53,148 bases of DNA from positions 1 to 53,148 of IMG/VR virus record IMGVR_UViG_3300044640_000694. One strand, written 5' to 3'. Made by a program: the position numbers and the translations under genes. The DNA is from a virus (lineage: Duplodnaviria > Caudoviricetes). The notes under the pieces were generated by a model. The model ran no database searches. It was not told the DNA's origin and saw nothing but the letters and a program-made list of their open reading frames with translations. Positions 16,264-49,642 of this stretch are shown piece by piece; the stretch's first letter is position 1, and every line of letters begins with the position of its first letter.

Positions 16264-16270
16264 TGAGGAT

Positions 16271-17005: not shown

Positions 17006-17015
17006 GGAGAATTTA

Positions 17016-20570: not shown

Positions 20571-20575
20571 TAATT

Positions 20576-24800: not shown

Positions 24801-25543
24801 TGACAAGAAACAGCGGAATAACCATAAAGGGACAGTACGATCCAATAGTAAACCGTGGAATAGCTGTTCCAATCAACCAGTCAAGATCTGACAATCACAA
24901 GGTAATTGCTATGCAAATGTTTCTTAGATTTGATCAAGACTTTTTCCCATACGCCCCAACACAAATCTTTGAGTTGCAAAGCAAAAACTCGTATATTAAG
25001 TTTTATATGGTTGCCACCCATCCATCTGGAAAACGTGCAAAAATCTATGCCATTAATTCCAGGGGACAAGTAGAAAATGGTTTAGCCTTCTACTTAAATG
25101 GAAAGCTAGTAAAGGATCCAACTATTACGATTAAAGAATGGGCAACTCTTGGAATTAGGTTTGCAAATACTCAAGATTTTAATAACTATGAGGGTGCTTT
25201 GCGTATAAATGGTCCACTAACCTTTAATAGTTTGTCTTATTATAAGTCTACAAACCTACAAGAAGTACAGAACGTTGTTCAAAGACCATGGTTTAAGGTA
25301 GAAAAGGCTGGCTCGCTAACGCTAGATTGGAACTATTGGAATGCAATTCCATATCTTTGGGAAGAGGTGTTGGTTATATCAACCACTAGCTATTACGGAG
25401 TTGACCCTTCAGACATCTACAAGGCTTACACAGGAACCAATAAAATTATCGTAGATGACTCAGTAGAGACAACATTTGGTGACTATGCTTATAAATTCTA
25501 TCAAAATGTTTCATGGAAGACTAATACCTACCAAGCCGTATAA
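21845..25543 (+). CDS. Large virion protein with LamG/concanavalin-A-like domains (1232 aa)
   Basis: YAEKV..EHPIALWPLDD N-terminus, YTVEFWIR, INGEQV, LYIGG; beta-rich. Confidence 0.65.
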   Translation: MSNPSNLYAEKVFSEHPIALWPLDDSADYISLISEAQRNMESWQIDNGLAELVTGIIDEPFPTSHVSKITVDDTSGREFYVTSVSPDIVSFNNLSQELSTINVGVFLYSNTPYVSGFDIGYEYYDSVSGAIVQDLKFFSTEIYESWIFISETFTPVIQSSMMRLVIRARFYEGDDAENYSFLVNGISLGQWSEEFNSSSLGQTLESIPSNIFGESGLYGIPVQSYGLQNFDGYYIVENYALKAKNSGFPMVYGTNNVTTMQGVGSSKPSLILPSLGFLNESGKYKDYTVEFWIRANSDSIIDKKIFGSIRGTDGVYVGGPFISFKVGDNFIKHFVGEWYRPMLVQLRYSPSSISMIINGEQVGEVFIDATEIEMTEITSIINNITVDNDWMAFWSYQDVSPVEIDAVAIYGYKVPLQVAKRRFIYGQGVEFPENINNSYSGSSVFIDYPFSKYSKNYTYPNIGKWSQGAYDNFRINGNTLAFPGYSNALAVFDNKTQDQWLNDVKLIQNGDDSIISLRPNSGWNNTNGYIYVNNFSLSSSQAKAFYVTCKEVSSVPLQTKQTVLLIEDNVFGSYFEIAISQDKIEYILKDGDGITIVDSKERYFLGEDFAIGIDIQRFSDYYGEKVAQFFGRLSNMSLYIGGRKDFTQTFTGNIYSIGVCSEKNLAEIQSIFGESGLMFTDEFVDGNILSSTADAEFYNTAVYEFLYDGGSLGQYANSIIFSHIASYHLSLVDSQISGFGLAVGSNSYWQDYVPLSTFAKLVPDAKGDSRLDLDFLQFNIDYPAPSIFIQEQTTGSWSYEELASEYATPIQRSYESLDNHLFTGFDSYEDLKNRAENTYKYDTSSSIVKTYVTFQLIEDNPNKNLNSFINEERPSKDGILKPGDNWLNTKYEVVDNMIIYPPNSIPFEDLAIVTHIEAKTLSIADSPISIRRLEYCSLSLSETSPTAIGTRFGNDIYPYRKDGFYFTYNQDNPFTIYKGSTPYLYMTRNSGITIKGQYDPIVNRGIAVPINQSRSDNHKVIAMQMFLRFDQDFFPYAPTQIFELQSKNSYIKFYMVATHPSGKRAKIYAINSRGQVENGLAFYLNGKLVKDPTITIKEWATLGIRFANTQDFNNYEGALRINGPLTFNSLSYYKSTNLQEVQNVVQRPWFKVEKAGSLTLDWNYWNAIPYLWEEVLVISTTSYYGVDPSDIYKAYTGTNKIIVDDSVETTFGDYAYKFYQNVSWKTNTYQAV

Positions 25544-25561
25544 TATGGTATACTATTGGTT

Positions 25562-25930
25562 ATGAATAAGGAAAATCTCAATCAAATTGGTAACTCTAAG
25601 GTTACAGTTCTAGACAAAAATTATGATTGGGGTATCTATGTTTGGCAGAGAGAAAACGGTAAATGGTTTACGGATGGTCAGGGAAACATCTTAAACATTC
25701 CGTCTCATAGGGGTGACGAAATACAGCTGCAGAGACTTCGCCAAGCTGCAGCATATCATGGTGAGCCTAACGGCAAGCCGATCTTCTTTCCAGGAATGGG
25801 AAGGGTAACAGATGAAGAATATTCAGAACAAGTAGACAGAATGAAGCAAGGTCTAATTCCAAACCTCAATGACCTTGGTGCAGTTAAGGCAGCACAGGAT
25901 ACACTAAAGCTATATGGAGATGAAGGCTAA
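25562..25930 (+). CDS. Hypothetical protein preceding the portal gene
   Basis: ATG 7 nt after TGGTATACT (25546-25554); coupled to the portal gene by TAATG. Confidence 0.75.
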   Translation: MNKENLNQIGNSKVTVLDKNYDWGIYVWQRENGKWFTDGQGNILNIPSHRGDEIQLQRLRQAAAYHGEPNGKPIFFPGMGRVTDEEYSEQVDRMKQGLIPNLNDLGAVKAAQDTLKLYGDEG

Positions 25931-34067: not shown

Positions 34068-34763
34068 ATGCCTAATAAAATTTATGACTCAGAAACCATC
34101 TTTCTGATCGACGGTACTGAAGTCTTTATGACTCCCTTAAAGATTAAATATCTTAGAGAGTTCATGCAACAGTTTGAAAACCTAGACAAAGCCAACTCAG
34201 AAGACGACACGCTAAGCATATTGATAGAATGCTCTAGGGTAGCAATGAAACAGTACTGCCCAAGGCTAAAGACTACAGAAGATGTAGAAGATAACCTAGA
34301 CATCAAGTCAATGTATAAGCTATTAGAGATTGCAGCAGGCATAAAGATTAATGGCGAAGATAAAGAGCCTGTAAAACAACAAGCCCAGGAAAGCTCTCCA
34401 AAGTGGAGCGAGATGGATTTAGTTACTCTTGAGTCTGAAGTATTTTTGCTGGGTATCTGGAAAGACTATGACGAACTAGAAACATCTTTATCAATGCCAG
34501 AGCTAACGGTAACTCTTAATGCTAAAAGAGACTCAGACTACAGGGACAAGAAGTTTATGGCAGCAATGCAGGGTGTTGATCTTGACAAACAAACTGGTAA
34601 GAGTGAGCAAAACGCCTGGGAAAAGATGAAGGCTAAGTTTTTCAGTGGTGGCAAAACAGGTGACTCAAATGATATCACAGCACTACAAGGATATAATGCC
34701 CAGAAGGCTGGCTTTGGTATTGGAATGGGTCTTGGTTACGAAGATTTAACTAAAAAATCCTAG
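34068..34763 (+). CDS. Tail assembly chaperone, long (GT-like) form
   Basis: N-terminal ~100 aa similar to 34808-35134, plus a C-terminal domain (WKDYDELETSLSMPEL); TGGTATACT 6 nt upstream. Confidence 0.7.
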   Translation: MPNKIYDSETIFLIDGTEVFMTPLKIKYLREFMQQFENLDKANSEDDTLSILIECSRVAMKQYCPRLKTTEDVEDNLDIKSMYKLLEIAAGIKINGEDKEPVKQQAQESSPKWSEMDLVTLESEVFLLGIWKDYDELETSLSMPELTVTLNAKRDSDYRDKKFMAAMQGVDLDKQTGKSEQNAWEKMKAKFFSGGKTGDSNDITALQGYNAQKAGFGIGMGLGYEDLTKKS

Positions 34764-34807: not shown

Positions 34808-35134
34808 ATGACTGTAACAGTCAATGAAGAAAAGATCATCAAGTTAATCGATGGAACAGAGATCAGCGTACGACCGCTAAAGATTTCACTATTGCGTGAC
34901 TTCATGAACAAGTTTGCCGACATTGCAAAGGTTGCCGATAATAACGATAAGGCAATGGACGTGCTTATGGCATGTGTACAGATTGCAATGAAGCAGTACA
35001 AGCCAGAACTTGCAGAAGATTTGGCAAAGCTAGAGGAAAGTTTGGATCTTCCGACAGTATACAAGATTGTAGAAGAGGCATCTGGAATCAATCTTGGCGA
35101 TACTGCTCTGATGGGAGCCATTCCTACCGCCTAG
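34808..35134 (+). CDS. Tail assembly chaperone, short (G-like) form
   Basis: Between major tail and tape measure genes; TGCTATAAT at 34771-34779 and AGGAGG SD. Confidence 0.7.
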   Translation: MTVTVNEEKIIKLIDGTEISVRPLKISLLRDFMNKFADIAKVADNNDKAMDVLMACVQIAMKQYKPELAEDLAKLEESLDLPTVYKIVEEASGINLGDTALMGAIPTA

Positions 35135-35156: not shown

Positions 35157-38100
35157 ATGGCTGATATAGAATCAAATATTAGATTTGGAGTAGATACTTC
35201 CGATGCTATAGCGTCTATCAAGATGCTACAGGCACAGATATCAGCCTTCCAAAAACAGATGGCCTCGTCCTCAGTTGCCAATGCAGAATCTGCTAGGAAG
35301 CTGAGGCGAGGTCTTATCGATGACCTCAATGCTAGTGGCCAGTGGTCAGCCTCAATAAAAAATATTCAGAGCTCTTCTGAGAGCTTTACCAACGCCCTTG
35401 AAAAGAACAAGCTCTCCATGGGAGAGTACTTTAGATATGGTGCATCTCAAGTTGGTGGGTTTAGAAAAACCTTCACCAAAGAGTTTGATACGATTGAAAA
35501 GGTTGCAAGAGAACGAGTCAAAGACTTACAGACTCAGTACATATCTCTTGGCCGAGATGCTAACGGTGCACTAAAGGCAATTGCTGTAAGACCACTAAAG
35601 CTAGATATGGAAAGTCTGGCTACCCAGACAGCAATCAATGCTCAAAGACAGCAAATATTTAATCAGCTACTAAAGCAGGGTTCTACTAATCTTCTAAACT
35701 TTGGTAAGAACACTCAGTGGGCTGGTCGCCAGCTTATGGTTGGTTTTACAATTCCTTTATCCATATTTGGAACAATGGCTTCCAAAACATTCATGGAACT
35801 AGAGCAGCAAGCAATTAGATTCAAGCGTGTTTATGGAGAGTTGTTTACTCCTCCTGAAGAAGCCGATGAGATGATTGATACTCTTAAGGAGCTTGCAAAA
35901 GAATTTACTAAGTATGGTGTAGCGGTAGAAAAGACTCTTGGTCTAGCAGCTGATGCAGCAGCCATGGGTAAGACTGGAGTGGAACTTCTTGACCAGGTAA
36001 CAGAAGCAAACCGCCTAGCAGTTCTTGGTAATGTAGAGCAGCAGCAAGCACTTGAAACAACCATCTCTCTAACTAACGCATTTGGAACTGCAACTGAGGA
36101 TTTGGCAAAGAAGATTGACTTCCTAAACGCAGTTGAAAACCAAACGGTAGTTAGCATTGAAGACCTAACCATTGCTATTCCTAAAGCAGGTCCAGTTGTA
36201 CAACAGCTAGGTGGAGACGTAGAAGACCTTGCATTCTTCTTGACAGCCATGAAAGAAGGTGGAATTAATGCCTCTGAAGGTGCTAACGCCCTAAAGTCTG
36301 GTCTTGCATCCTTGATTAATCCAACTGGTCAAGCAGCAAACATGCTAAAGGTTTTTGGTATTAATGTCAAGGAAATTGTTGATGGCTCACGTGGAGACGT
36401 ACGTAAGCTAGTTGTAGACTTTGCTTCTGCACTAGATACACTGGACCCGTCACAAAGAGCACAAGCTATTGAGCAGCTATTTGGTAAGTTCCAGTTCTCT
36501 CGTCTATCTACGTTGTTCCAGAACGTAATTCAAGAGGGCACTCAGGCATCTCGTGTTCTAGAGCTAACTAATGCAACAACTCAAGAGCTTGCACAACTAT
36601 CCTCAAAAGAGTTGAAGCGTGTAGAAGAGTCTACAACATTTAGATTCAAGAAAGCCATTGAAGAATTTAATGCAGCTGTTGCTCCAGTCGGAGAGCAGTT
36701 CCTAAAACTAATTACCCCAATTATTGAGTTTGCCACAAAGATCATTGAGCAGTTTAACTCTCTAAGTGACAATGCAAAGGGATTTATTACTGGACTTACT
36801 GTTTTGCTTGGTGCCGTAGGTCCAGTAGCACTTATGACATTTGGTCTATTGGCCAACGGTGTTGCAAACATTATTAAGGGATTTACCTTTGTAAGAGAGC
36901 TATTCCAAAGAACTGGTAAGCAATCAACTATTCTTGGAGAGCAGTTTGACTATCTGACAACAGAGCAGCTTCAGGCAGCTGCAGTTTCAGCGTCTCTTGA
37001 TCAAGTTCACCAGACATTAATTCAGACATTCTCATCAGAAGCAAGTGCTGTAAAGAAGCTTGGCGATGTTTATAGAATGGCATTTAATGAACAGCAAAGA
37101 TTCGATACTGGTAGAGCAATTGCAAAGCAAGCAGGTCTAAAGCTTGCATCTGGAATTGTTTCCGTTCCAGGACCTAAGGGTGCAGGAGATATTGTACCAG
37201 CAGTCTTGTCCCCAGGCGAAGCAGTTATTCCTGCCGATGCAGCAAAGAAGTATGCTCCTATTATTCAGGGTATGATTGCAGGAAACCTTCCTGGATTTAG
37301 CCAAGGTGTAATGCTTGGTATGCCTCGCTCTGGTAAGGGCACTCAGAAGGACAGAGAAGCAGCTGAGCAGATCTATGAAATGTTCCTTCAGAGCTCTTAT
37401 GCCAGTGTTCCTCCTAGAAAGTATGGGCACCAGCTTGCTAAGACTACTGGACACAGCTTCCCAATTTTTGGTCTTGGCGGAGTATACATGTCTCCAGAAG
37501 GCGAAAAGGTATTCGTAAAGCCAGTACTTGATGAAAGAGCTGCAGTTGCAGAAATGAGAGCAACAGAGATTGCTCGTAGGGCTCATGGACTAAAGTCACC
37601 TGAGCAGCGAATTGTGGTGATGCAAGACCCTACAGATGTTAGGAGACAAAGAAGATTCCTTGCCCTTGAGTCACCGCTAGACCCCACATTTGCCAACAAC
37701 CAGCCAATGGCACTATTTAATGAAGAGCAGTACTTTAGACAGTTAGTTGCCTCTCTTCTTCGTGTAGACAAAGACTTGTCAGCATCTAACGTCTTTGGAG
37801 ATGTTGTTGCAGACGTAGGTCCTGCAGGTGTATTTACTAGAGCATCTGGTCTAAGAGACTATGCAGAAAATCTTCCATCTATGGAAGAGCAGGCAATGAT
37901 AAATCTACTTGGAATCAAGGGTGGTGCAAAGAGGGCATTTGCGGAATCAACACTGTCGTTGATGGCTGGACTAACACCACAGCAGTACCAGCAAAGAATG
38001 GTCTCTGAAATTCAAAGGGTTATTCCACTTCTAGAAGAAACAATAGCTAGCTTTAACCTAACAGACCCAAGAGAAGTCAAGGTATACCAAGATATGGTAG

Positions 38101-41100
38101 CTAGACTTCGCCAGGGACTAGGTGTTGATTGGTCTAAGTTCCACGCTATTCACTCTGCTGTAAAGCCAACTCAGCCAAAGCAAACTACAGTTCCAGGCTA
38201 CAAGAATGGTGTTGTTAGCGTACCAGGACCAAAGGGTGCTGGAGATGTTATGCCAGCGATGCTGTCTCCTGGAGAAGCAGTTATCCCAGCAGACAAGGCT
38301 AAAAAGTATGCTGGATTTATTCAGCAAATGATTTATGGAAAGATTCCTGGATATGAAGATAGCAATGTTGTAAAGGTAACTCAAACTAGACTAAGGCAGT
38401 CATTTGGAGATTCTGGAACAACTAGACTGCAGGCAAGTCACTTCCAAGGACTGACTCCAGAAGAAGCACTTGAAACATTAAGAAAAGATTTAGCTCTGCT
38501 TGGCAAAGAGGCAAAAGATTCATCTGTTCTGGTTAGAGAGTATTATGAAGAAGTTGATGAGTCTGGCAAAAAGGTTGTTGTTGCTAAAGATAGCATAATG
38601 ACACTTTCCGAAGTTGTTGAAAAGTTTGCAGATGGAAAAACAAAAATGGCATTTGGAGGTCAAACCTTTGGAGCCTCTACAGTTTTAGAGTCAGCAGTAA
38701 GAAATCAAAAAGCATATGCAAAGATGGAGTCTGCCATGTCTCCAGAAGAACGTGCTACGATTGGAAAATTGGGTGCTCCAGAAACTCTTCAAGACCTAGT
38801 TGTTCAAGGAGATCTTGCTGCTAGAGCCTTGGTACAGTTTAAAGGAAAGCTTACAAAAGAAGTTCAAACGGTTTTAGAGAATATTGTAAATGAAGGAAAT
38901 AATGCTAAGGCTGCCCTAGCCTCCACAAACTCGGCAGAAGAGCAATTGGCATTTGCAATTTCTCAAAGAGAAAAGTCTATTAAAACACACATACAGTATG
39001 CGGATGCTACGCTAACAGCTTCTCAAAAAGAAGAAAAGATAGCAGCAGTAAATCAAGAACTTGAAAATATTAAACAAATGTATGTAAAAGAACTTCAAGA
39101 GGGAATGTCTGAGCAAGATGCACTAAATAAGGCAGTTGCAAGATTAAGAATGTTAGCACTAGAGAATTCTTCATATGGTCCAGAAGGCATGATGGCACTG
39201 CATGTGGGAGATGTGCCTAATAGTGTTATAAAGCAGGCAGCAGGAAACAAGATTTCTGAAACAAGCTCATCTGGTAGAGAGACCGTTTCAAACTTTAAGT
39301 CTTTGCAAAGACTTCCAGTAGGACTTCCAACTACAGCTGTAGTGGCAAATATTGCACAGGATATGATTTTGGCAGGAGCCGAATCAGCAAGAGTTAATGC
39401 AGAAAGTCTTGATGCATTTGCACGACAAGCCGTGGTTGATTACTTAGACAGCTTCTATAATGGCATAACTGATGGAATGATGGACTTTGCACAAATCAAC
39501 TCTCCATCAGACAGAACAGATGACACAATTGGTAAGCCTTTGGTTGAGGGTATGGAGGCTGGTGCCCTATCTGGTAAAGATGACATGCAGCAGGCTGGTG
39601 CTATTTTGGCAGAAACCGCTGCAGATTCCGCTGCAGCAGCTGCAGGTGGAGCAGGAACACGTGGACCATCAGGTGCAGTTAAAGTTGGAAAGAGAAGAGT
39701 TACAACAAATCCAGCAGCTATCGCTGCATATCAAGAAGAGCAGGGACTACAGACACAGACCAAGCCTGGTCCACGTAGAGCATCTAGACCATCAACAGAT
39801 CTAGGGGCAGCAGCTAGAGAACAGGCAATGACATCAGCACTAGTTGCAGAAGCAAACCAAAGTCAGGCAAGAGCAGCCACAGAGTCTGCTGCAAAGATGC
39901 AAGCAATGAACTCCATGATCATGAACGGCACATTTGCACTGAGCTCTTTAACTGGTGTTCTATCGCTATTTGGTGGGGAATTTGCAGAACTGAACCAAAC
40001 TCTATTTGGTATAACCACAGCACTGTTTACCTTAATGCAAGTTACTCAAATGCTTACTCAGGCAAAGGTAGTAGAGATTGCTAAAACTCAATTTAGTGCA
40101 GCTACTGCCAGGGTAGAGGGTTTAACAAGAGCAGCAAATATGGCTGGCAAACCTTTGGTAGGATTTGGAGGTATGCTATTAAAGGCTGGAACTTTTGTAG
40201 CTAGATTCCTTGGACCAATGGGTCTAGCAATAACAGCAGTATCAGTATTTGCTGCCCTTATTGGATTTGCGATTGATAAAGAGAATAAGAGAAGGGCTGC
40301 ACTAGAAGCATTTGCGAAGACTGTAAAGCTTGCAGATGAACAGCTAGATTATTTAGCAAGTAAGTTTAATGTCACTGCAAAAGAGATCTCGTTTGGTGAG
40401 CCAATTGCTCCAGGAGAAGAACCAAGTGGTGCTCCAACATCATCACAGCTAAGATCTGATGAAGACTTCTTGACTAAGTTTGAGGCACAGATTAACTCCC
40501 TAAAGAGTGCTACAGATGAAGCTGCAGTTCAGCAAATTGAAGGCCTCTCAATGAACCTAAGCTCACAGGGATACTCTGCTGCAGCAATTAAGGAAATTAC
40601 AGAAGCTCTGCTTAAAGAGGCTGGCAAGAACCAAATAGAACTTGACATATTTAAGAAAAATCCAGACGGCACACTATTTATTGATGTAGACCCAAAGAAA
40701 ACCGTTGAGGATCTAGTTACAAATATTCAAAAGAGCGGTGCAGAACTTGTAGCTGCCAAGCGAGGCAGTATGGGTGCTGGCAATGCAGAAGACCAGTATC
40801 TGTCAGATGTTGGTTCTGCAGTAGCATATACAGATGCTGCATTGCGTCAAATAAGAGCAGGGCTTGAAGACGGTACGCTAGAAGCTCAAGATTATCAAGA
40901 TCAGCTAGCACAAATATTTACTCCGATCACAGAACTTCAGGGAGATGACTTAACTACCTTTATCGAAAGTCTAGCCGAGTCAATGGACATAGATGTTGAT
41001 GCACTTACCTCAGACTATGACAAAGTGCTTGCAGCTAAGATGGCAGTTGCAGGACTAGAAATCTCAGATGATGATGTTAAGACTCTTAATGCAGGTGGAA

Positions 41101-44100
41101 AAGAAGCAGAAGCGGTCAGAAAGAGACTAAATAAGTTAATTTTAGGTCAGGCTGACAATATCAAGAAGGTTGTTAATGAAAGAGCACAAGAAAAGCTAAT
41201 TGATGAAAACTATGGAACAGCAACCGCAGCACTAAATGACAGAGTAGTTGCACTTCAAAATCAATCTGGTGCATACCAGACCCTGATTGATCAGGGCTAT
41301 GATGCAGAGACAGCGTTTGAACTTGCTGGAGACTCTGCCTTAGCTGCTGGTATTCAAGCTGCTATTGGTGCTGGTGTTGGTAGCCAAGAGTGGAAAGACC
41401 TAAAGGCACTACTTGATCAGGTAATTGATTTAGAGGCTAAGGCACCTAAGGGTCCAGGCGGAGCTGGTGACAAGTCAGATTATCAGAAGTCAATAGAGTC
41501 TTTGCAGGATCAAAGAAAAGAAATTATTAACAACAATGTTGCACTTAATAAGCTAAGGCAGGCTGGTTTTGATATCGCCAGTGCAATGAAGGCAGCAGAA
41601 GACCCAATTACTGCAGCAGCTCTAGCCAGCACTAAGGTCGGAACTGATAAGTGGAAAAACCTAATTAGCTCTATTAGACAGACACAGGCACTGTTGTCTA
41701 AGAAAGAAATTAAGGACTTGCTACTTGGCAAACAGATTGAAATTGCAGACAAGAAGTCACAAGCCATTGTGTCTACTGCACTTTCTAGACTGGGGTACAC
41801 GGCAGAACAGATTGACGATGTTCTATCTAATCAAGAATTTACAAACACTCTAGCTAAAGATCTTCAAGATGGTTCTATTAATTCTAAAGAGTTGCGAGAT
41901 GTGCTTATTGAGATTAAGAAACTAGGAAAGCTAGAGATTACAGCTAACCTTGCAACCAAGGAAGGTGCTGCAGAAGAATTCCAGAAGAGTTACGATAAAG
42001 TTGTTGGATACCTCCAGGCCAAGCAGGAAACAATTGAAATAGGCTTCCAGCTAAAAACTGATGCTGATAGAACTATTGTTCGTGAAGCAGAAGACCTAAT
42101 TGCAGCAATTCAGTACAAGATTGATGACTATGAGGCAGAGCTTGTCGGTATTGAAGAGCAAGAAGAGCTTATTAACAAGAAGTATGATGATAGAAAAGCA
42201 GCCCTTGATAAAATCGCTAAGGCAAATGATAGAATTGCCAAGCAGCAAAAGGGTCAGCTAACTCTTGCAGATGCTCTTAGCAAGGGTGATATGGCTGCTG
42301 CTGCCCAGGCTATTCAGGACATTAGAGCACAGCAAGCAGAAGACAGTGTAGCTGGACAGGGAGACCTTCTAGAAGCTTCAAAGCAGCGAGAACTTGATGC
42401 AGTGCGATCTTCAAGCGGTAAGAGCAGAAAGCAACTTGAAGAAGATATTAAGAAGCTTAAGAAGGATATTTTTGATATTGAAGAAAAGACTCTTGAGCCA
42501 GCTAATGAAAGAATCCGACTTGCAGGCGTAGAAAAGGCAGCAGCTGTAGCTAGTCTAGATTCACAAATTTTAAAGTGGGAAGAACTTGCTGCAAAGGTAA
42601 ATGAGGCAAAACTTAAGCTTACCCCAGAAGAAATGACTGCAATGCAGACACAAGCAGGTCTTATTGCAGATATGCTACAAAATTGGGATGACATTGATAG
42701 TAAGGAAGCTACTCTTACAATTAGAAAGAAAATAATTGGGGATGTCGTAGATGGGCCTAAGCCTCCTAAGCCTCCAGTTGTTCCTGGTGATAGTGGCGGT
42801 GGAAGTGGTAGCGATAGTGATAGCGGAAATACAGATAGTTCTACTAACTTTAGAGATTCTGGTCTAAGTACTGCTGGATATATTAATAGAACAGACGAAG
42901 GCACTTTGGCAAGAATTCCAACAAAGCCAACTTCAGATGCTGGTATTGGTAAGACCTGGCAGCTAGATGCTACAAATACTTGGAGAGCTGTTACAAGTCC
43001 TAAGCCACCGTACAACCCTGGAATTGGAAATACTTGGTATTGGGATACCTTTACGGATACCTGGAGAATTCAGCCAATTGCTGGACCTAAAAAGCTAGCA
43101 GTAGGTGGGTCCGTAACTGGGCCTGGCACATCAACTTCTGACTCTATTCCTGCAATGCTTTCTGACGGAGAATATGTTGTTCGTGCCTCTAGTGTTGACA
43201 AGCTTGGAACAGGATTCCTAAACTTTATTAATGAAAATGGTAAGCTGCCAGGATTTGCTATTGGGGGTGCTGTAAGTAAGCAAAAGCCAAAACCAAAACC
43301 TGGTGATGCAGGATTCTATAAGCCAAGAACCACATCTGAGGCTATCAGCATGGGTATGCAGATGGTTATGGATAACATAACTAGAGGCATGTTTGGTCAA
43401 GCTGGTGCAAATGCTAAGTACGGTGTTAAAAATACAGCTGGAGATGTCGTTGATTCAGTTGCCACAACACTACTAAATGCTTTGCCAATTCCTGCAGTAA
43501 AGGGAGTTATGTCTACTGCAAAGTTTGGTAAAGCAGTTAAAAACTCATTAGATAAAGATTATGTTTTAAGAAGAACACAAATGGTAGATACGCTACCAGC
43601 AATTCCTGGAATGCCACCTCAGAAGGTTACCCCTTACCCAGTCACAAAGAGAGTAGAGGCTCTTTCTCCATCTCTCTATGCCAGCATTCTAAAGGATAAA
43701 AAAGCTGGAACTCGCTCAGCCGATGATTTCTTGCAAACGTTGCCACTAAGAGGGTTTGAAGATTATTCGGTTAGAACGCAAAACTTTATGGGTAACATGT
43801 TGGGGTCCAACCTACCATATCAAATGAGGAGAAAAGTTGAAACTGGAATCTCTAGTTTGGTTAACAAGGTCGCATCTCCTGGGATAAGATCAATTCCAGA
43901 AACGTTAAGACTTCGCCACAGAAGCACTCAGCCATTGCTAGAAGACTTTGTGACCCACCCATCAGCAGTTCCTGTTGCATCTGGTAGAACTTATGGCCCA
44001 GGAACATACTTTGCAAAAGATCCAAGAACCTCTAAAAGGCTTTTCCGTGGCTTTGGAGATAACGTATATAAACCAAAATTGACTATTCAGGGCATGGTAG

Positions 44101-44633
44101 AGCAGGCAAAAAGTAAGGGATACCTAAAACTTGGCGAAGACAGCCTACCACCTTTGGGAAATATGGATTGGAATGATCCATTTATTCAGGATGCCATGAA
44201 GCAGGGGTATATTGGGATAAAGCATAACGATGCGTACACTAACTGGCTAATTGGAACTAGTGAAGACTTTAGTCTAAAGAAGGTTACTAAGTTTAAGTTG
44301 CCTCAATTAGGAAACCCATATGCAATGGGTGGGCTAGTAAAGCCAAAGTACTTTAATGCTGGTGGAATGGTTAAGGGATATGCTATGGGTGGGGACATCG
44401 TGCCATCTATGCTTACCCCTGGAGAATTTGTAATGAGCAAGTATGCTGTTCAAAATTATGGACTAGATAAGATGAAAGCTATAAATTCTGGCACATACAA
44501 CGGAGATTCCATGTATAATTATGAGATAAATGTTAATGTTCAAACAGATGCAAACGCAGATCAAATTGCCAAGGCAGTTATTGGACAAATTAAGCAGATT
44601 GATTCTCAAAAAATTAGGGGGAATAGGTTCTAA
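35157..44633 (+). CDS. Tape measure protein (3158 aa) with embedded accessory domains
   Basis: TP901-like core (GGINASEGANALKSGLASL, EQLFGK), long Ala-rich helices, hydrophobic segments, INSPS motif; position after the chaperones. Confidence 0.92.
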   Translation: MADIESNIRFGVDTSDAIASIKMLQAQISAFQKQMASSSVANAESARKLRRGLIDDLNASGQWSASIKNIQSSSESFTNALEKNKLSMGEYFRYGASQVGGFRKTFTKEFDTIEKVARERVKDLQTQYISLGRDANGALKAIAVRPLKLDMESLATQTAINAQRQQIFNQLLKQGSTNLLNFGKNTQWAGRQLMVGFTIPLSIFGTMASKTFMELEQQAIRFKRVYGELFTPPEEADEMIDTLKELAKEFTKYGVAVEKTLGLAADAAAMGKTGVELLDQVTEANRLAVLGNVEQQQALETTISLTNAFGTATEDLAKKIDFLNAVENQTVVSIEDLTIAIPKAGPVVQQLGGDVEDLAFFLTAMKEGGINASEGANALKSGLASLINPTGQAANMLKVFGINVKEIVDGSRGDVRKLVVDFASALDTLDPSQRAQAIEQLFGKFQFSRLSTLFQNVIQEGTQASRVLELTNATTQELAQLSSKELKRVEESTTFRFKKAIEEFNAAVAPVGEQFLKLITPIIEFATKIIEQFNSLSDNAKGFITGLTVLLGAVGPVALMTFGLLANGVANIIKGFTFVRELFQRTGKQSTILGEQFDYLTTEQLQAAAVSASLDQVHQTLIQTFSSEASAVKKLGDVYRMAFNEQQRFDTGRAIAKQAGLKLASGIVSVPGPKGAGDIVPAVLSPGEAVIPADAAKKYAPIIQGMIAGNLPGFSQGVMLGMPRSGKGTQKDREAAEQIYEMFLQSSYASVPPRKYGHQLAKTTGHSFPIFGLGGVYMSPEGEKVFVKPVLDERAAVAEMRATEIARRAHGLKSPEQRIVVMQDPTDVRRQRRFLALESPLDPTFANNQPMALFNEEQYFRQLVASLLRVDKDLSASNVFGDVVADVGPAGVFTRASGLRDYAENLPSMEEQAMINLLGIKGGAKRAFAESTLSLMAGLTPQQYQQRMVSEIQRVIPLLEETIASFNLTDPREVKVYQDMVARLRQGLGVDWSKFHAIHSAVKPTQPKQTTVPGYKNGVVSVPGPKGAGDVMPAMLSPGEAVIPADKAKKYAGFIQQMIYGKIPGYEDSNVVKVTQTRLRQSFGDSGTTRLQASHFQGLTPEEALETLRKDLALLGKEAKDSSVLVREYYEEVDESGKKVVVAKDSIMTLSEVVEKFADGKTKMAFGGQTFGASTVLESAVRNQKAYAKMESAMSPEERATIGKLGAPETLQDLVVQGDLAARALVQFKGKLTKEVQTVLENIVNEGNNAKAALASTNSAEEQLAFAISQREKSIKTHIQYADATLTASQKEEKIAAVNQELENIKQMYVKELQEGMSEQDALNKAVARLRMLALENSSYGPEGMMALHVGDVPNSVIKQAAGNKISETSSSGRETVSNFKSLQRLPVGLPTTAVVANIAQDMILAGAESARVNAESLDAFARQAVVDYLDSFYNGITDGMMDFAQINSPSDRTDDTIGKPLVEGMEAGALSGKDDMQQAGAILAETAADSAAAAAGGAGTRGPSGAVKVGKRRVTTNPAAIAAYQEEQGLQTQTKPGPRRASRPSTDLGAAAREQAMTSALVAEANQSQARAATESAAKMQAMNSMIMNGTFALSSLTGVLSLFGGEFAELNQTLFGITTALFTLMQVTQMLTQAKVVEIAKTQFSAATARVEGLTRAANMAGKPLVGFGGMLLKAGTFVARFLGPMGLAITAVSVFAALIGFAIDKENKRRAALEAFAKTVKLADEQLDYLASKFNVTAKEISFGEPIAPGEEPSGAPTSSQLRSDEDFLTKFEAQINSLKSATDEAAVQQIEGLSMNLSSQGYSAAAIKEITEALLKEAGKNQIELDIFKKNPDGTLFIDVDPKKTVEDLVTNIQKSGAELVAAKRGSMGAGNAEDQYLSDVGSAVAYTDAALRQIRAGLEDGTLEAQDYQDQLAQIFTPITELQGDDLTTFIESLAESMDIDVDALTSDYDKVLAAKMAVAGLEISDDDVKTLNAGGKEAEAVRKRLNKLILGQADNIKKVVNERAQEKLIDENYGTATAALNDRVVALQNQSGAYQTLIDQGYDAETAFELAGDSALAAGIQAAIGAGVGSQEWKDLKALLDQVIDLEAKAPKGPGGAGDKSDYQKSIESLQDQRKEIINNNVALNKLRQAGFDIASAMKAAEDPITAAALASTKVGTDKWKNLISSIRQTQALLSKKEIKDLLLGKQIEIADKKSQAIVSTALSRLGYTAEQIDDVLSNQEFTNTLAKDLQDGSINSKELRDVLIEIKKLGKLEITANLATKEGAAEEFQKSYDKVVGYLQAKQETIEIGFQLKTDADRTIVREAEDLIAAIQYKIDDYEAELVGIEEQEELINKKYDDRKAALDKIAKANDRIAKQQKGQLTLADALSKGDMAAAAQAIQDIRAQQAEDSVAGQGDLLEASKQRELDAVRSSSGKSRKQLEEDIKKLKKDIFDIEEKTLEPANERIRLAGVEKAAAVASLDSQILKWEELAAKVNEAKLKLTPEEMTAMQTQAGLIADMLQNWDDIDSKEATLTIRKKIIGDVVDGPKPPKPPVVPGDSGGGSGSDSDSGNTDSSTNFRDSGLSTAGYINRTDEGTLARIPTKPTSDAGIGKTWQLDATNTWRAVTSPKPPYNPGIGNTWYWDTFTDTWRIQPIAGPKKLAVGGSVTGPGTSTSDSIPAMLSDGEYVVRASSVDKLGTGFLNFINENGKLPGFAIGGAVSKQKPKPKPGDAGFYKPRTTSEAISMGMQMVMDNITRGMFGQAGANAKYGVKNTAGDVVDSVATTLLNALPIPAVKGVMSTAKFGKAVKNSLDKDYVLRRTQMVDTLPAIPGMPPQKVTPYPVTKRVEALSPSLYASILKDKKAGTRSADDFLQTLPLRGFEDYSVRTQNFMGNMLGSNLPYQMRRKVETGISSLVNKVASPGIRSIPETLRLRHRSTQPLLEDFVTHPSAVPVASGRTYGPGTYFAKDPRTSKRLFRGFGDNVYKPKLTIQGMVEQAKSKGYLKLGEDSLPPLGNMDWNDPFIQDAMKQGYIGIKHNDAYTNWLIGTSEDFSLKKVTKFKLPQLGNPYAMGGLVKPKYFNAGGMVKGYAMGGDIVPSMLTPGEFVMSKYAVQNYGLDKMKAINSGTYNGDSMYNYEINVNVQTDANADQIAKAVIGQIKQIDSQKIRGNRF

Positions 44634-45274
44634 TGGCTACTGAAGCTTACATGATTGGTCGTAAAAAGTATAAGCGTCCACAGGCAATGATGTGGTCAGA
44701 TAACTCTGGCACCCTTATTAATGGACTATTTGTTCCAAACGGTTTTGAGGTTGGATCAGATCCAGGTTCTGAGACTGACGAATCACTGTTCGATCAGTTT
44801 CTAATTTTGTCAGATGACAATAGGTCATCGCTAGAATTTAAGCCAACAAGAATTGAGACTCGTAAGCGAATGGTCAATGGGCGTATGCGTTCTTATCACG
44901 TTGCAGATAAGCTAACAATTTCAACTTCTTGGGATATGCTACCATCAAGATCTTATCACCTAAGACCAGACTTTAGTCAGCAAGACGGCAAGTCAGAGTA
45001 TTACAATAACAGAAGTCTAGAGTATACGACTGACGGCGGTGCAGGTGGTGTCGATATTCTTGACTGGTATGAAAATCACAAAGGTCCTTTCTGGGTATAC
45101 CTTGCTTATGATAAGCATTCAGTATTTGGTGACACCAACGATGCATATTCTAAGCTAGCTCAGTACAATCAGATAGTTGAAATGTATATTTCAGATTTTT
45201 CATATTCTGTCGTAAAGCGTGGTGGGACGAACTATGACTTTTGGAATATCTCTGTAACGCTGGAAGAGGTGTAA
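44633..45274 (+). CDS. Distal tail (Dit)-like protein
   Basis: Follows the tape measure gene; RMVNGRMRS, WNISVTLEEV ending. Confidence 0.65.
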   Translation: MATEAYMIGRKKYKRPQAMMWSDNSGTLINGLFVPNGFEVGSDPGSETDESLFDQFLILSDDNRSSLEFKPTRIETRKRMVNGRMRSYHVADKLTISTSWDMLPSRSYHLRPDFSQQDGKSEYYNNRSLEYTTDGGAGGVDILDWYENHKGPFWVYLAYDKHSVFGDTNDAYSKLAQYNQIVEMYISDFSYSVVKRGGTNYDFWNISVTLEEV

Positions 45275-48200
45275 ATGTTTCAAGATAATGATTTGAAAAA
45301 TCATCTAGAAACTTCTTCAACTATCAGAACTCAGTCAGCGGTTATCGCTGAGTGGAACATGAATATTGCAGAAAATATTTCTTTGGTTGGTAACTATAGA
45401 TACCGTCCTACAGAGGGGCCTGCTGCAAAGTACGGCTTGCCAATAAGTTCTTTTGATGCAAACGATTCTGGGAATTTTTATACTAATGCCACTAACGCTG
45501 ACGTTATTATTGATGGTGGAATTGGTGACGATGATGAAACACCAACTGTGTTCCAAAGTAAGAAAGAAAAAGAAAGACAGCTATACTCCCTTGAGGAATG
45601 CTTTGGAAAGTTCCGTCCACGATCTGGAATAAATAAGCTACGCTATTTTCCTGGGGCATACAGTCATTTTACAAACATAAACATGATTCGTAGACCTAGA
45701 TACTACATGGCACACAAAGATGACTCGTTTAAGTATTGGTCATCTTATAGGACAGAGGATGGTATTGAGAGAGGAATTGCTAATAAACTCGTTAACGGTC
45801 AATACTTTATTGATGATGCCTCTCCATTTATTGTTTACAAAAATTCTGTTCCATCTAATCGTATTGTAGTAAAGATGCAGACAAACGTTGGCGAGGTTGA
45901 CCTTGGACCATTTAGAACTACAGCTGGATCTTTCCAGGACCCCTTCTACGGCAATTCAAGAAAGACAACGCCAACTCGCTGGAAGGTTCAAGTCCTAAAA
46001 AACAACAACTGGTTTGATGCCGTATCCTTTAATTCTGGATCCACAAGATCAGACGGCAGTCCAATTATAGGTCCTGATGGCTATGTAGAGTTATCTTATG
46101 GACTAATTGTTCCAGAAAAATATAGAAGCATTTTTGTTAAGGCAGAAGAGTATTTTACTGAAAGCTTTTTGCCAGAAAAATCTACAAATGGTTATGCTTA
46201 TTTAGTTAAGCAAAATGAATCAGATGTTGGTGTGTTTCATATTTGGATTGATTCTGCACAAGACTATGAGACATTTGTTCCACAGTATAACTGGTATCTA
46301 GAAGAGTCATCGGTAGACAGACTTACCAACTTTGTAACTGACCTAACATCTCCAAATACATATCTAGACACTAACTCTGGAGGAACTAGGTACCGTGAGT
46401 TTGACCAAATTTCTGGTCTAAGAATTGTTGTTGACACAATGAATCGTGTTGATTCAATATTTGATTTGATTGAGCTGTCACCTAGACTTACGGTAAATCT
46501 ATCAGAAAAGGTTGAGTCATTCAGCATTACAAAGGCAGCATCGGATCTTGGAAATAGCGGAATGCCAGTTGGTCAACTTTTAGCAGGTGTGGGATCTCTA
46601 ACCTTATTTGACTATGACTTAGCATTTAGTTCGTTAAACCAGAACAGTCTTGTATCTAAGTATTTGTCTAAAAACATACAGATTAAGCTTTATGAAATTA
46701 TTGTAGATGTAGATGGTTATGATTATTATATTCCACTAAAGACCATGTACTCAGAGGGTATTCCAGAGATAACTAATAATGACAGATCTGTAAGTCTTGA
46801 GCTAAGAGATTTCTTTTTCTACTTTGAGTCTAAGTCAGCACCACAAATCTTAATTCAAAATGCGTCATTGAGTTATGCAGTATCGCTACTTCTAGACTCA
46901 GTTGGATTTTCCAATTATGTATTTAAGAGAATGTCTGGTGATGCAGAGGCAATCATTCCATTTTTCTTTGTTTCCCCAGACAAAACAATTGCTGAAGTCT
47001 TGAATGATATTGCAGTATCAACTCAGACTGCAATGTTTTTTGATGAATACAACAATCTAGTTTTGATGAGTAAAGAATATATGCTACCAGAAAAAACAGA
47101 TGAAAGGCCAACAGACATAACGCTATATGGGTCCAATGACTTTGCTTCTGATGGTCAGATTCATAACAAAACAACAAAACCAAAACTTGCAAACATAGTA
47201 GAACTATCTTCTCAACAAGATTCAATATTTAATAATGGAAAGATTTCTTATACAACAAGATACATTCGAAGATCTATTAGCTCAACAGAACAAGCCAGCA
47301 TGGTTGATAATTATAGAACCTGGGGATATGAAGCTGCACTGATTTGGGAAGTTACTGGAGAAAGTACCGTCAAGTCAATAAATGATGAGGTATCAGACCA
47401 GTCAAAGTTTGTTCTTGCTGCTCTTCCTCTAGAGTCAGATCTATCAAGTGATGTTCCTGTTGTTGAAAATGGCGTTATTAAAAATAACGTTTTTAGTTTT
47501 GGAGAGGCTGCCTATTTCCTAACTAGGTATAATGGATATTTCTATGCAAATGGAGAAATTATTAAGTTTGATGCCGTTGAGTATGAAATTCCAGGTGTAG
47601 ATAGAAGTGTATTCCAAAGAACAGATAATGGGAATGTGGCAGTATCTACCACAAATAGTGGAGCCATTGGAAGGGTTTGGATTACAAGCGTTAGGGAGTA
47701 TCAAAAGTATTTTGCGAAGCTACCGTTTAATGGAAAGATGTATCCTACTGGTCGTGTAAGAATTTATTCTGAACCTAACTATGTCACAGTTAATGGAGTC
47801 GAAAAGTTGGCTAATGGTCCAGTAGCAAAGCATGGCCGTGGACAATTTGGAACCCCAATTGTATCTCACTCTGCTGGTCTATCATCTTATTGGACATCCG
47901 CCTTATCTGTTAGAGGATGTTCCATGAAGTCTTCTCAGCTGTTTGGAGTTCCAACAGAAACTCAAATTAGGGTTGGTCAAGCAGGTCAAAGTAATTCTAC
48001 AGCAACAAATGCTACCAGAACGGGTGTTCTAAAAAATCATATGGCCTATACTCCATCTCTAGAAACGATTGCTCAAAATAGGGTTGCTCCTGGAACAGTG
48101 CAATCTTCTGCTCTTATATTTACAGGACCATCTTTCACAACTACGCAAAAACCCATTGACTTTATATCTTATGTATATAAGCCACTAGATAATAGATACA

Positions 48201-49642
48201 AACATTTTGGTACTAGGCTTAGGATTATTGGAAAGATTGAAAATAACGAAAACAGCGGTCAGACTCCAACTGGTGCATCTCAATACTATGTAGCAAATCC
48301 AAATAGTCCAACTCAGCCAGTTACCATTAATGGTGCATCTGGCGGACTGGGGGTAATGATTAATCCAGAGACCAACAATGGATACTACTTTGAAATTGCT
48401 GCACTTACAGAAAATAACATTAATTCATACGACAATGCAGATAATATTCACAACATTCTTTTCTACAAGGTAGGAAGGTCCCTAGATGACTCGGCAACTC
48501 AGGCAGTGCCAATTAAGCTATGGGGAGGACTGTCTTCAGGAATCACAGTAGATAGTGGAGACTTTGTTGGTCAGTACAGAATGGTAGATGAAAAAATTCC
48601 AACAGTTTACGATCTATCGGTTGAGTATCAAGACGTTGGATCATCAAGAAGGTTCTTTTTATATATAAATAATAGACTTATTGCAACGGTGCTAGATGAT
48701 TCACCGCTACCAGTTTATAATAATATGGCATTGTTTGTTCGTGGCTCTTCCAGGCTAATGTTTGAAAATATTTATGCTATTACAAATAACTATTCTCAGA
48801 ATACAGTCTATGCCCTTGACACCCCAGTAAATGCTGCATTTTCTGATGACGAGATTAACATGAATGAGTCCCTAAGAAGATATGCAATGAGTGGGGTTAT
48901 TCAGTCTAGCTATCTGTCTGGCATTAGCCCTGCAGAATCACCAAAGTATAATATTTACTTTGATGAGTTTGGAACAATTATGCGTGAAGCTTCATACTTT
49001 AATATTAAGTATGACAAAGCATTCCCAGCACTATATGCAAAGCTATCTCCAACCTTCAACAAGATTAAGGGTTATACAACTTCTGGATTTATTGCTAGTG
49101 CTTACGGGGCTGAGTTCATGGTATTTAATGCAACAGATACCATGCTAAGTCTTGATGAAAAAAGCGGAAACTATTTGAGGATTCAAGGAGTGGTATTTAC
49201 ACAGCAATCAACACACGAGTATACTGTTGATGAATACTTTGATAAAAAGACCGATTATTCTAACCCACAATTTTCTGGTGGGCAGCTAGTGTCTTATCCG
49301 ACTAAGGCAAAAAAGGACTATCAGGATATTAAGGTTAGCAGGCTTACTCATGGATCTAAGGAGTTTACTTTGGATGCACCATATATTCAGTCACACGATG
49401 AGGCAGAAAATCTTCTAGGTTGGATGATATCTAAGATTATGAAACCAAGAAAATCTATTGGACTCCAGGTATTTGGAATGCCCATCCTACAACTTGGTGA
49501 TATAGTAGAGATTGACTATAAAGATAATGAAGGAATAAACCAGGCATCTCTTGACGGTGCTAGGTTTGTTGTTTATCAAATAGAGTATGCGAAAACATCG
49601 GATGGACCAGAGATGACAGTATTTTTGAGCGAGGTGGCATAA
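45275..49642 (+). CDS. Baseplate hub or central tail protein (1455 aa)
   Basis: VLNDIAVSTQTAMFFDEYNNLV and PYIQS...GMPILQLGDIVEI hub-type motifs. Confidence 0.7.
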   Translation: MFQDNDLKNHLETSSTIRTQSAVIAEWNMNIAENISLVGNYRYRPTEGPAAKYGLPISSFDANDSGNFYTNATNADVIIDGGIGDDDETPTVFQSKKEKERQLYSLEECFGKFRPRSGINKLRYFPGAYSHFTNINMIRRPRYYMAHKDDSFKYWSSYRTEDGIERGIANKLVNGQYFIDDASPFIVYKNSVPSNRIVVKMQTNVGEVDLGPFRTTAGSFQDPFYGNSRKTTPTRWKVQVLKNNNWFDAVSFNSGSTRSDGSPIIGPDGYVELSYGLIVPEKYRSIFVKAEEYFTESFLPEKSTNGYAYLVKQNESDVGVFHIWIDSAQDYETFVPQYNWYLEESSVDRLTNFVTDLTSPNTYLDTNSGGTRYREFDQISGLRIVVDTMNRVDSIFDLIELSPRLTVNLSEKVESFSITKAASDLGNSGMPVGQLLAGVGSLTLFDYDLAFSSLNQNSLVSKYLSKNIQIKLYEIIVDVDGYDYYIPLKTMYSEGIPEITNNDRSVSLELRDFFFYFESKSAPQILIQNASLSYAVSLLLDSVGFSNYVFKRMSGDAEAIIPFFFVSPDKTIAEVLNDIAVSTQTAMFFDEYNNLVLMSKEYMLPEKTDERPTDITLYGSNDFASDGQIHNKTTKPKLANIVELSSQQDSIFNNGKISYTTRYIRRSISSTEQASMVDNYRTWGYEAALIWEVTGESTVKSINDEVSDQSKFVLAALPLESDLSSDVPVVENGVIKNNVFSFGEAAYFLTRYNGYFYANGEIIKFDAVEYEIPGVDRSVFQRTDNGNVAVSTTNSGAIGRVWITSVREYQKYFAKLPFNGKMYPTGRVRIYSEPNYVTVNGVEKLANGPVAKHGRGQFGTPIVSHSAGLSSYWTSALSVRGCSMKSSQLFGVPTETQIRVGQAGQSNSTATNATRTGVLKNHMAYTPSLETIAQNRVAPGTVQSSALIFTGPSFTTTQKPIDFISYVYKPLDNRYKHFGTRLRIIGKIENNENSGQTPTGASQYYVANPNSPTQPVTINGASGGLGVMINPETNNGYYFEIAALTENNINSYDNADNIHNILFYKVGRSLDDSATQAVPIKLWGGLSSGITVDSGDFVGQYRMVDEKIPTVYDLSVEYQDVGSSRRFFLYINNRLIATVLDDSPLPVYNNMALFVRGSSRLMFENIYAITNNYSQNTVYALDTPVNAAFSDDEINMNESLRRYAMSGVIQSSYLSGISPAESPKYNIYFDEFGTIMREASYFNIKYDKAFPALYAKLSPTFNKIKGYTTSGFIASAYGAEFMVFNATDTMLSLDEKSGNYLRIQGVVFTQQSTHEYTVDEYFDKKTDYSNPQFSGGQLVSYPTKAKKDYQDIKVSRLTHGSKEFTLDAPYIQSHDEAENLLGWMISKIMKPRKSIGLQVFGMPILQLGDIVEIDYKDNEGINQASLDGARFVVYQIEYAKTSDGPEMTVFLSEVA

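Follow-up and report, generated by a model that had tools for sequence, protein, structure and literature searches.

A repeated motif delimits kinase-like and ADP-ribosyltransferase-like cassettes in the predicted tape measure protein of an uncultured long-tailed phage

Introduction

Tape measure proteins (TMPs) are trimers that fill the lumen of phage tails and are expelled first once the baseplate opens, as described in work on phages JBD30, T5, and Douge. The T5 TMP, pb2, contains a hydrophobic stretch, an anchoring segment, a cleaved C-terminal piece, and a hub helix, and the C-terminal piece is credited with muralytic activity and is expelled into the host envelope (PMC10038345). In mycobacteriophages (TM4, Barnyard, and others), small host-derived peptidoglycan-hydrolase motifs are embedded in the TMP and aid infection, according to the accessible portion of PMC1796659. 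Polyvalent proteins are giant proteins stringing together ADP-ribosyltransferases (ARTs), atypical kinases, GNATs, ParB-like domains, and Zn-peptidases, and it has been proposed that they accompany the DNA during injection and suggested that they recombine in a cassette-like manner (Iyer et al. 2017, PMC5512222). Here, we describe a single open reading frame (ORF) at positions 35157-44633 of the IMG/VR virus record IMGVR_UViG_3300044640_000694, the 53,148 bases of which (estimated to be 47% complete) constitute the window analyzed. The ORF is predicted to encode a TMP in which a kinase-like domain and an ART-like domain are each enclosed by two copies of a repeated motif of ~58 amino acids (aa).

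Virion-carried ARTs or toxin domains are also known from phage T4 Alt and the MuF-fused polymorphic toxins, which are injected together with the DNA. Unlike the present protein, these are packaged in the head, outside the tail tape measure (T4 ARTs are mentioned in PMC7824862). T5 pb2, with the general features listed above, is among the closest known systems, whereas the T5 cargo is small, directed at the cell wall, and uses neither ATP nor NAD, and neither bracketing by two motif copies nor cassette turnover is described for T5 in the text available. The mycobacteriophage TMPs resemble it in that an enzyme is embedded in the TMP, and the same ~58-aa motif occurs twice in those of Aegeus and Douge; however, their hydrolases act on the cell wall, outside the cytoplasm, and the accessible portion of PMC1796659 describes neither kinase or ART cargo nor a bracketing motif. 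With the polyvalent proteins it has in common the kinase-like and ART-like repertoire, while ParB-, Zn-peptidase-, and GNAT-like motifs were seen in its relatives only by eye or below threshold. Polyvalent proteins differ in being head-packaged or transferred by conjugation, whereas a TMP forms the scaffold in the present case, with slots set by a dedicated repeat; the word 'tape' is absent from the main text of PMC5512222. The Sle1-type effectors of actinobacterial contractile injection systems, which are TMP-related, modular, equipped with exchangeable and diverse domains, and loaded in a tail-like particle (PMC13277306, the part available), are likened to the present protein by description only, as they belong to a bacterial contractile nanomachine and not to a virion TMP. 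Within the accessible parts of the literature on tape measure proteins that was searched, no kinase or ART domain inside a TMP and no bracketing motif is described. TMPs with embedded cell-wall hydrolases and polyvalent proteins are known, and what is new is that the two are joined in motif-delimited TMP slots.

Architecture of the tape measure protein

The ORF encodes 3158 aa, is free of internal stops, and is the longest in the window. Its N-terminal part matched the Pfam family PF10145 (PhageMin_Tail; aa 245-443, E 4.5e-27, 95.7 bits against a cut-off of 33.2) and, over aa ~10-660, nine PHROG tape-measure families (best 6.4e-101). The gene is the largest of the tail module and is flanked by ORFs in the tail assembly chaperone position and by distal tail genes, and portal, prohead protease, and major head protein are encoded upstream of it. 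Judged from its sequence, the ORF is the TMP gene of an uncultured long-tailed phage. Megablast of the gene returned only a match of 53 nucleotides (nt) in Streptomyces phage TMP genes. Its features are as follows, R1 to R4 being the motif copies, located by regular expression, hidden Markov model (HMM), and BLASTP:

35157..44633, + strand: TMP gene (single ORF; Pfam and PHROG matches)
35889..36485, + strand: PhageMin_Tail domain, aa 245-443 (Pfam PF10145)
36777..36866, + strand: hydrophobic segment 1, aa 541-570, ~90 aa before R1 (Kyte-Doolittle)
37137..37307, + strand: motif R1, aa 661-717
37308..38189, + strand: cassette A, protein-kinase-like by AF2 model, 294 aa, aa 718-1011, between R1 and R2
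38190..38363, + strand: motif R2, aa 1012-1069
38364..43085, + strand: long rod, aa 1070-2643, between R2 and R3
40191-40280, + strand: hydrophobic segment 2, aa 1679-1708, within the rod (Kyte-Doolittle)
43086..43265, + strand: motif R3, aa 2644-2703
43266..44342, + strand: cassette B, aa 2704-3062, between R3 and R4; ~195 poorly predicted residues, then a predicted ART-fold core (AF2)
43872..44300, + strand: predicted ART-fold core, ~145 aa, aa 2906-3048 (AF2, VIA-align)
44343..44531, + strand: motif R4, aa 3063-3125
44532..44630, + strand: C-terminal 33 residues past R4 (position and length)

Hydrophobic segments were called with a Kyte-Doolittle window of 19 aa at a value of at least 1.5, with a maximum of 2.08 in segment 1. 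The equivalents of the rod, taken as inter-motif segments in 117 relatives, span 1331-2014 aa, and the rod shares 20-60% identity with relatives in a mosaic fashion. In the JBD30, T5, and Douge TMPs, the C-terminal 33-42 residues make the trimer in the baseplate hub, and the 33 residues past R4 would, by position and length, be the corresponding terminal helix seated there.

Four copies of a repeated motif

A regular expression on the motif core hit exactly four sites in the TMP, from which the HMM was then built. The initial annotation had noted a motif occurring four times, at about 37143, 38197, 43095, and 44379; all four positions fall inside the HMM-delimited copies, and the seven short motifs that it saw as brackets (LASG, FSQG, YKNG, LAVGG, FAIGG, YAMGG, and FNAGG) are all located at copy edges. 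By BLASTP inside the TMP, R1 matched R2 (E 6e-24, 74% identity over 50 aa), R3 (E 1.7e-6, 32.3 bits), and R4 (E 2e-5, 29.3 bits), whereas the best R1 match in 200 residue shuffles of the TMP reached a maximum of 28.1 bits (mean 16.9), compared with 29.3-81.6 bits observed. The four copies thus exceed chance and are real repeats. As DNA, R1 shares 74% identity with R2 across 146 nt, and among the four motif cores the identity is 65-73% across 37 nt; because the DNA identity of the copies is only 65-74%, the repeat is kept at the protein level and does not stem from recent duplication.

Conservation was assessed on 408 motif copies anchored on Gly-Glu, the 100% value of which is an artefact of anchoring the alignment there. 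Several positions independent of this anchor barely vary: Asp was found in 99%, Pro in 96%, Ala in 91%, Leu in 99%, and Val in 96% of the copies, and the values of Asp and Pro indicate strong constraint on those residues. Across 482 copies, only three sequence types were distinguished at <42% identity, all of which are represented among the four copies in the window. In addition, the R3 stretch was matched by the PHROG TMP families 3547 and 36688, and phrog_35029 covers aa 3061-3111 in the R4 region. Pfam returned only PMBR on the motif copies, at the chance level of E 0.2, and complex prediction for three copies from the motif alignment scored 0.21 and 0.00 against a mark of 0.42 in runs without controls, which speaks neither for nor against a trimer of the motif.

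The surroundings of R3 and R4 are themselves patterned. Three tandem aromatic-x-x-Gly-Gly-hydrophobic-Val-Lys/Pro units (44307-44393, aa 3051-3079) run into R4, and the number of aromatic-x-x-Gly-Gly units ahead of the R4 position varies among relatives. At ~42900-43080 (aa ~2585-2640), two hairpin-like units of the form Gly-x-Thr-Trp ... Thr-Trp-Arg come between a low-complexity Gly/Ser/Asp/Pro linker and R3, and a Thr-Trp pattern like the one before R3 was also seen in the cassette of the relative P0031.

A kinase-like domain between the first two copies

Non-helical globular domains had initially been proposed between copies 1 and 2 and between copies 3 and 4, and structure prediction agrees, giving an alpha/beta kinase-like domain in the first interval and an alpha/beta ART-like core, after ~195 poorly predicted residues, in the second. 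Cassette A was modelled by AF2 from a 17-row alignment (pLDDT 85.8, pTM 0.85), and structure comparison showed the bilobal kinase fold in the model. VIA-align matched it to the CotH kinase 5jda at Z 11.2 (root-mean-square deviation (rmsd) 4.3, 218 residues aligned), MavQ at 9.2, PI4KII-alpha at 8.9, CtkA at 8.8, and HipT/HipA at ~8, with seven chains at Z of at least 8, and kinases made up 50 of the 50 matches listed. Every match listed by Foldseek against the PDB was likewise a kinase, with weak E-values (2e-3 and above). Cassette A is therefore confidently predicted to adopt a protein-kinase-like fold.

Kinases are recognized by a beta3 Lys, a helix-C Glu, the catalytic-loop Asp...Asn, and the Mg-binding Asp of a DFG-like motif. 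In the cassette A alignment, Lys788 is present in 12/12 covering rows and Glu799 in 13/13, and Arg869, Asp871, Lys872, Asp873, Asn878, and Asp886 are invariant (17/17 rows), where residue roles were assigned from the order of the residues and the secondary structure seen in the model, and not by residue-level superposition. These residues suggest that cassette A is apparently an active atypical kinase. Its substrate is unreadable from the fold because the structural neighbours span protein, lipid, and small-molecule kinases, and the ESM Atlas neighbours (PI3_PI4_kinase, HipA_2, or LepB_N; score 0.92) serve as leads only.

In a viral structure library, the top matches of cassette A were large multi-domain phage proteins whose annotations read ADP-ribosyltransferase (Mycobacterium phage Onyinye, E 2.9e-5), PI3/4-kinase-domain protein, or portal/head-morphogenesis fusion, and these viral fold matches are of the polyvalent-protein type. 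The cassette is present in 112 of the 120 relatives analyzed below, at 54-90% identity, which is above the conservation of the rod. Stand-alone relatives amounted to 10 proteins, nearly all on contigs of 0.8-5 kb; because these are probably gene fragments on short contigs, free-standing versions of the kinase are not established by them. Neither the two cassettes nor the profile of the ART family retrieved anything useful from the PDB by sequence.

An ART-like core between the last two copies

A search of 1.84 billion representatives yielded 81 relatives of cassette B (54 at E <=1e-10), which have the last ~150 residues in common. The AF2 model, based on 42 short homologues, is confident only in this core (pLDDT mostly 93-97, with 10-residue block means of 80-97). 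VIA-align matched the core to ParT 6d0h at Z 5.9 (rmsd 3.6, 115 residues aligned), the RES toxin 9r35 at 5.8, diphtheria toxin 1dtp at 5.6, MbcT at 5.2, and PARP10/15 at 5.2-5.4, the PARPs overall lying at 4.5-5.4 with PARP10/14/15 and the tankyrases at ~5, and 49 of the 50 matches listed were ART folds. Foldseek E-values were 0.17 or worse. An ART fold is likely for the core of cassette B, though unproven since these Z values are middling.

ARTs of the H-Y-E clade have a His in strand 1, a Tyr in strand 2, and a catalytic Glu in strand 5. The core carries the His and Tyr motifs of the diphtheria toxin/PARP/RES clade: His2921, in the model strand 217-220, is kept in 31/41 rows (Arg in 7) and belongs to the conserved stretch His2921/Arg2922/Ser2923, with Ser2923 kept in 37/41 rows, and Tyr2951, in the model strand 247-250, is kept in 41/43 rows within the motif Gly-Pro-Gly-Thr-Tyr2951-Phe-Ala. 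The nearest ESM Atlas clusters of the core carry PF18760 ART-PolyVal (scores 0.86-0.87), again as a lead only. Moreover, at least one motif copy was detected in 40 of the 79 cassette B relatives scanned, and the core of the giant relatives is typically found immediately upstream of a copy. Thus, kinase-like and ART-like domains, as found together in polyvalent proteins, occur here in one phage protein of 3158 aa.

A separate observation concerns the pre-ejectosome of cyanophage A4, in which residues 1418-1606 of PDB 9k3a chain B align with the ART core at Z 5.0. This head-packaged podophage ejection protein may also carry an ART-like domain, judging from the structural alignment; the main text of the cyanophage A4 paper mentions ADP-ribosylation 0 times.

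Cassette turnover among relatives

The full-length search returned 2546 proteins at E <=0.001 among 7998 scored candidates, and the 120 listed ones (2218-4035 aa) were analyzed, giving 121 proteins together with the TMP of the window. Slot-state changes were counted on a FastTree tree of the N-terminal domain, from which two N-terminally truncated proteins were dropped, leaving 119 rows. The motif HMM detected 409 copies in the 121 proteins, with two copies in 8 proteins, three in 61, four in 50, and five in 2. The two-copy TMPs consist of the backbone only (N-terminal domain, motif, rod, motif, and end), their first copy having the upstream flank of R1; the three-copy TMPs add the kinase cassette to this backbone, and the four-copy TMPs mostly add a further cassette between R3 and R4.

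The C-proximal slot was empty in 81/119 proteins and filled in 38/119, and its cargo fell into nine cassette types unrelated by BLAST (18, 10, 3, and 2 proteins plus five singletons). At least 27 changes of this slot are needed on the tree, compared with a minimum possible of 9 and a shuffled mean of 36.6, and 27 or fewer were reached in 0/200 and 0/300 shuffles; well-supported branches alone force at least 13 switches between empty and filled. The N-proximal slot was filled by the kinase in 111/119 proteins and empty in 8, an extra cassette lay beside the kinase in 11/119, and its 7 changes compare with a shuffled mean of 19.7. The variable inserts expected between repeats in relatives were thus found in both slots, and the inter-repeat regions are not the invariant, helical segments of an ordinary tape. 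Modular architecture and replacement of cassettes in the relatives are real and well supported.

Turnover is visible even among close relatives. No C-slot cassette occurs in 15 of the 17 closest (85-92% N-terminal identity), among which P0025 is devoid of the kinase cassette as well and P0015 carries one more motif copy in tandem, and the other two carry, respectively, an ART-like cassette (54% core identity) and an unrelated cassette of 927 aa. The best ART core match (86%) was instead found in P0018, the N-terminal domain of which is 70% identical and the rod 12-58%, mostly 20-40%. Identity to P0018 rises to 78-92% exactly at the comparison window starting with R3 and holds to the end of the protein, so that the exchanged block shared with P0018 is R3-cassette-R4 with both flanking copies included. 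In P0054, the ART core is located in the N-proximal region, again between motif copies. The suggestion in the initial annotation that the repeats are recombination anchors agrees with this one mosaic breakpoint at the start of copy 3, but the copies are only 65-74% identical as DNA and breakpoints also occur within the rod (e.g., against P0002), indicating that the gene is mosaic in general; anchoring by the repeats accordingly stays a weakly supported idea.

Pfam searches with the cassettes of ten relatives gave sub-threshold matches only, namely to DUF3626 (23.6 bits, cut-off 27), ParB_N (16.7, cut-off 26.3), and DUF7416. By eye, and with no test in support, an HExxH motif was seen in P0027, a GNAT-like motif in P0010, and a ParB-like DGHHR in both P0039 and P0049, while P0039 and P0105 each showed a possible second ART. 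Kinship of the ART core with the P0039-type cassette and of the kinase with the P0114-type cassette was tried by hhalign, and the probabilities of 2.5-2.9% showed no relationship.

A probable modular carrier of enzymes

The explanation that we favour, and hold to be probable without being secure, is that the TMP serves as a modular carrier, bringing enzymes of the polyvalent-protein type into the host before the DNA. Its backbone would comprise the N-terminal TMP domain, the long rod, and the C-terminal helix, with one motif site following the N-terminal domain and another immediately preceding the C-terminal helix. A globular domain together with a second motif copy would be inserted at either site, and because the cargo comes with the second copy, every cargo domain would end up between two copies. 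As cargo, slot 1 would hold what is apparently an active atypical kinase, and slot 2 a PARP/RES-like domain of predicted ART fold. Since TMPs are expelled first, this cargo would exit the virion before the DNA, reach the host envelope or cytoplasm, and modify host targets with ATP and NAD+, much as has been proposed for the head-packaged polyvalent proteins. As a kinase and an NAD-using fold need cytoplasmic cofactors, the respective part of the TMP must reach the cytoplasm if the cassettes act in the infected cell.

Several points weigh against this explanation. Virion incorporation, delivery, enzyme activity, and targets, as well as the role of the motif, are steps that we infer, and the relatives compared are all metagenomic predictions. 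No match to either cassette was obtained in cultured phages by tblastn over 50,697 GenBank phage records. Pfam kinase families gave no match on the whole TMP at E <=1, and Pfam held no family for cassette B or any of the 43 members of its family; the PF18760 ART-PolyVal HMM likewise found no match in the window (E <=10) or in the 43 members (E <=0.01). The Z values of 5-6 of the ART core lie in a middling range that, as the tool warns, can reflect a common arrangement. Furthermore, no Glu is conserved in the candidate strand for the catalytic residue (model 323-326), where Thr3028 is present in 40/43 rows. ART activity would still be compatible with this, since some mono-ART PARPs likewise lack the catalytic Glu, and, given Thr for Glu, cassette B may be a weak mono-ART, an NAD-binding module, or inactive. 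Finally, three folded 33-kDa domains per trimer do not obviously fit the lumen of a siphophage tube, and the cargo would therefore travel unfolded or staggered; for T5, refolding is also invoked by Linares et al. (PMC10038345).

The motif in other phages and its possible roles

The profile of the four copies also matched TMPs of cultured phages. Two copies were detected in gp16 of Mycobacteriophage Douge (964-1013 and 1410-1472, E 1e-18) and one in gp46 of Pseudomonas phage JBD30 (1018-1056, E 1.3e-3), and tblastn with R3 matched 24 phage records with hosts in Vibrio, Mycobacterium, Gordonia, Stenotrophomonas, Nitrincola, and Klebsiella, in which the annotated genes matched are usually named TMP. 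In the TMP of Mycobacterium phage Aegeus, the copies at 938-996 (E 1.8e-20) and 1329-1387 (E 1.7e-19) enclose an NlpC/P60 match at 1216-1248 that is above the Pfam cut-off, indicating that a cultured phage, too, has the order motif-enzyme-motif, its cargo being a cell-wall hydrolase.

The motif is most likely a structural docking or hook element, and it may also mark cleavage points. Somewhat short of an even prospect, and tentative in our view, is the stricter explanation that the motif is purely a structural hook, that cassettes are tolerated at a domain boundary, and that the second copy is a by-product of recombination with a motif-bearing TMP gene, with no cleavage involved. It is consistent with the backbone-only relatives (8/121), which keep exactly one copy per site, and with the block exchanged with P0018, which takes in both flanking copies. 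The JBD30 match at 1018-1056 also overlaps the region (1022-1066) that its authors predict to fold into a hook, made up of two helices plus a beta-hairpin and holding the TMP in the baseplate, and which they liken to the segment retaining the T5 TMP in the opened baseplate. However, the motif is resolved in no solved structure, including the Douge and JBD30 tails, where the Douge TMP is modelled only at 1658-1699, and this explanation does not account for inserts lying nearly always between two copies and not beside one.

Slightly less likely still is that the motif is a proteolytic processing signal, as the initial annotation had proposed as one option, with the TMP being cut at each copy during assembly or ejection and the kinase and the ART-like domain being freed as separate polypeptides. 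T5 pb2 is cut after R1127, and its C-terminal piece remains in the tail and is expelled at infection (PMC10038345); directly after this cut comes an Ala-Glu-Gly-Gly ... Gly-Glu stretch similar to the beginning of the motif, and the 92 aa of pb2C come close to the 96 aa of R4 plus the C-terminal tail. In JBD30, a cut has been proposed at residue 1066, ~10 residues past the match of the motif profile, and the strong constraint on Asp and Pro in the 408 copies would also suit a processing signal. Nevertheless, the motif HMM does not match T5 pb2 even at E 1000, such that the likeness is at the pattern level only, the JBD30 cut is a PeptideCutter prediction with no measurement behind it, and the two analogies put the cut on opposite sides of the motif.

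A further proposal, which we regard as unlikely yet rich in consequences, combines both roles: the motif would be a portable docking-and-release module, and any enzyme placed between two copies would be threaded through the tail, cut free beside the motif in the manner of T5 pb2, and released into the cytoplasm before the DNA. If true, TMP segments would routinely cross the inner membrane carrying ATP- or NAD-dependent enzymes, and the slots could accept engineered cargo.

It is quite improbable that the cassettes are not delivered at all, and act in the producing cell (e.g., by modifying virion or host proteins during assembly) or are inactive spacer remnants: the ART-like family lacks the expected catalytic Glu, the producer cytoplasm, in which TMP synthesis takes place, offers both ATP and NAD+, and the C-slot cargo is dispensable, being absent in 81/119 proteins, but the kinase keeps 54-90% identity in 112/120 relatives with invariant catalytic-type residues while the rod falls to 20-40%, which argues for a selected enzymatic function, and the fast turnover of nine cassette types fits conflict-driven effectors and not spacers.

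Neighbouring genes and other features of the window

The tail genes adjoining the TMP gene are as follows:

34068-34763 and 34808-35134, + strand: two ORFs 5' of the TMP gene, matching phrog_10504, in the tail assembly chaperone position
44633..49642, + strand: tail genes 3' of the TMP gene (PHROG), a 213-aa ORF followed by a 1455-aa predicted minor tail protein

The two upstream ORFs would, by position, be tail assembly chaperones. As the second half of the ORF at 34068-34763 was also seen to match phrog_10474, they may be a duplicated or extended chaperone pair and not the usual frameshifted pair. Downstream, the 1455-aa ORF matched phrog_10359, a minor tail protein family (4.8e-57).

Further from the tail module, six paralogous ORFs of 196-256 aa (pairwise BLASTP E 1e-9 to 9e-54) occupy 16235-17720 and 19169-21817, forming a near-tandem array just upstream of the head genes, an expansion that is unusual for a phage; both of the two paralogues scanned matched PHROG 2OG-Fe(II) oxygenase families. 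A 1232-aa ORF at 21845-25543, upstream of the portal gene and separated from it by a 124-aa ORF (25556-25930), had no Pfam or PHROG match at E 0.001. Tail-fibre-like genes are located distant from the tail module, at 13708-15423 and 10752-13112: the 571-aa ORF has Mtd_N (major tropism determinant N-terminal, E 6.5e-18) at its start, along with matches to many tail-fibre PHROGs, and the 786-aa ORF has head-decoration and tail-fibre PHROG matches. In addition, a 326-aa ORF at 6615-7595 contains PASTA, fibronectin type III, and Listeria-Bacteroides repeat domains.

Implications

Under the explanation of the TMP as a modular carrier, its slots hold a conserved kinase and rapidly exchanged enzymes of a cytoplasmic type. 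This makes testable how far a TMP goes into the cell and whether active proteins are delivered with it. Because the same motif brackets a hydrolase in a cultured mycobacteriophage, tractable phages are available in which to test the processing and docking hypotheses. For the addition of cargo to phage tails, moreover, the slots are natural candidates.

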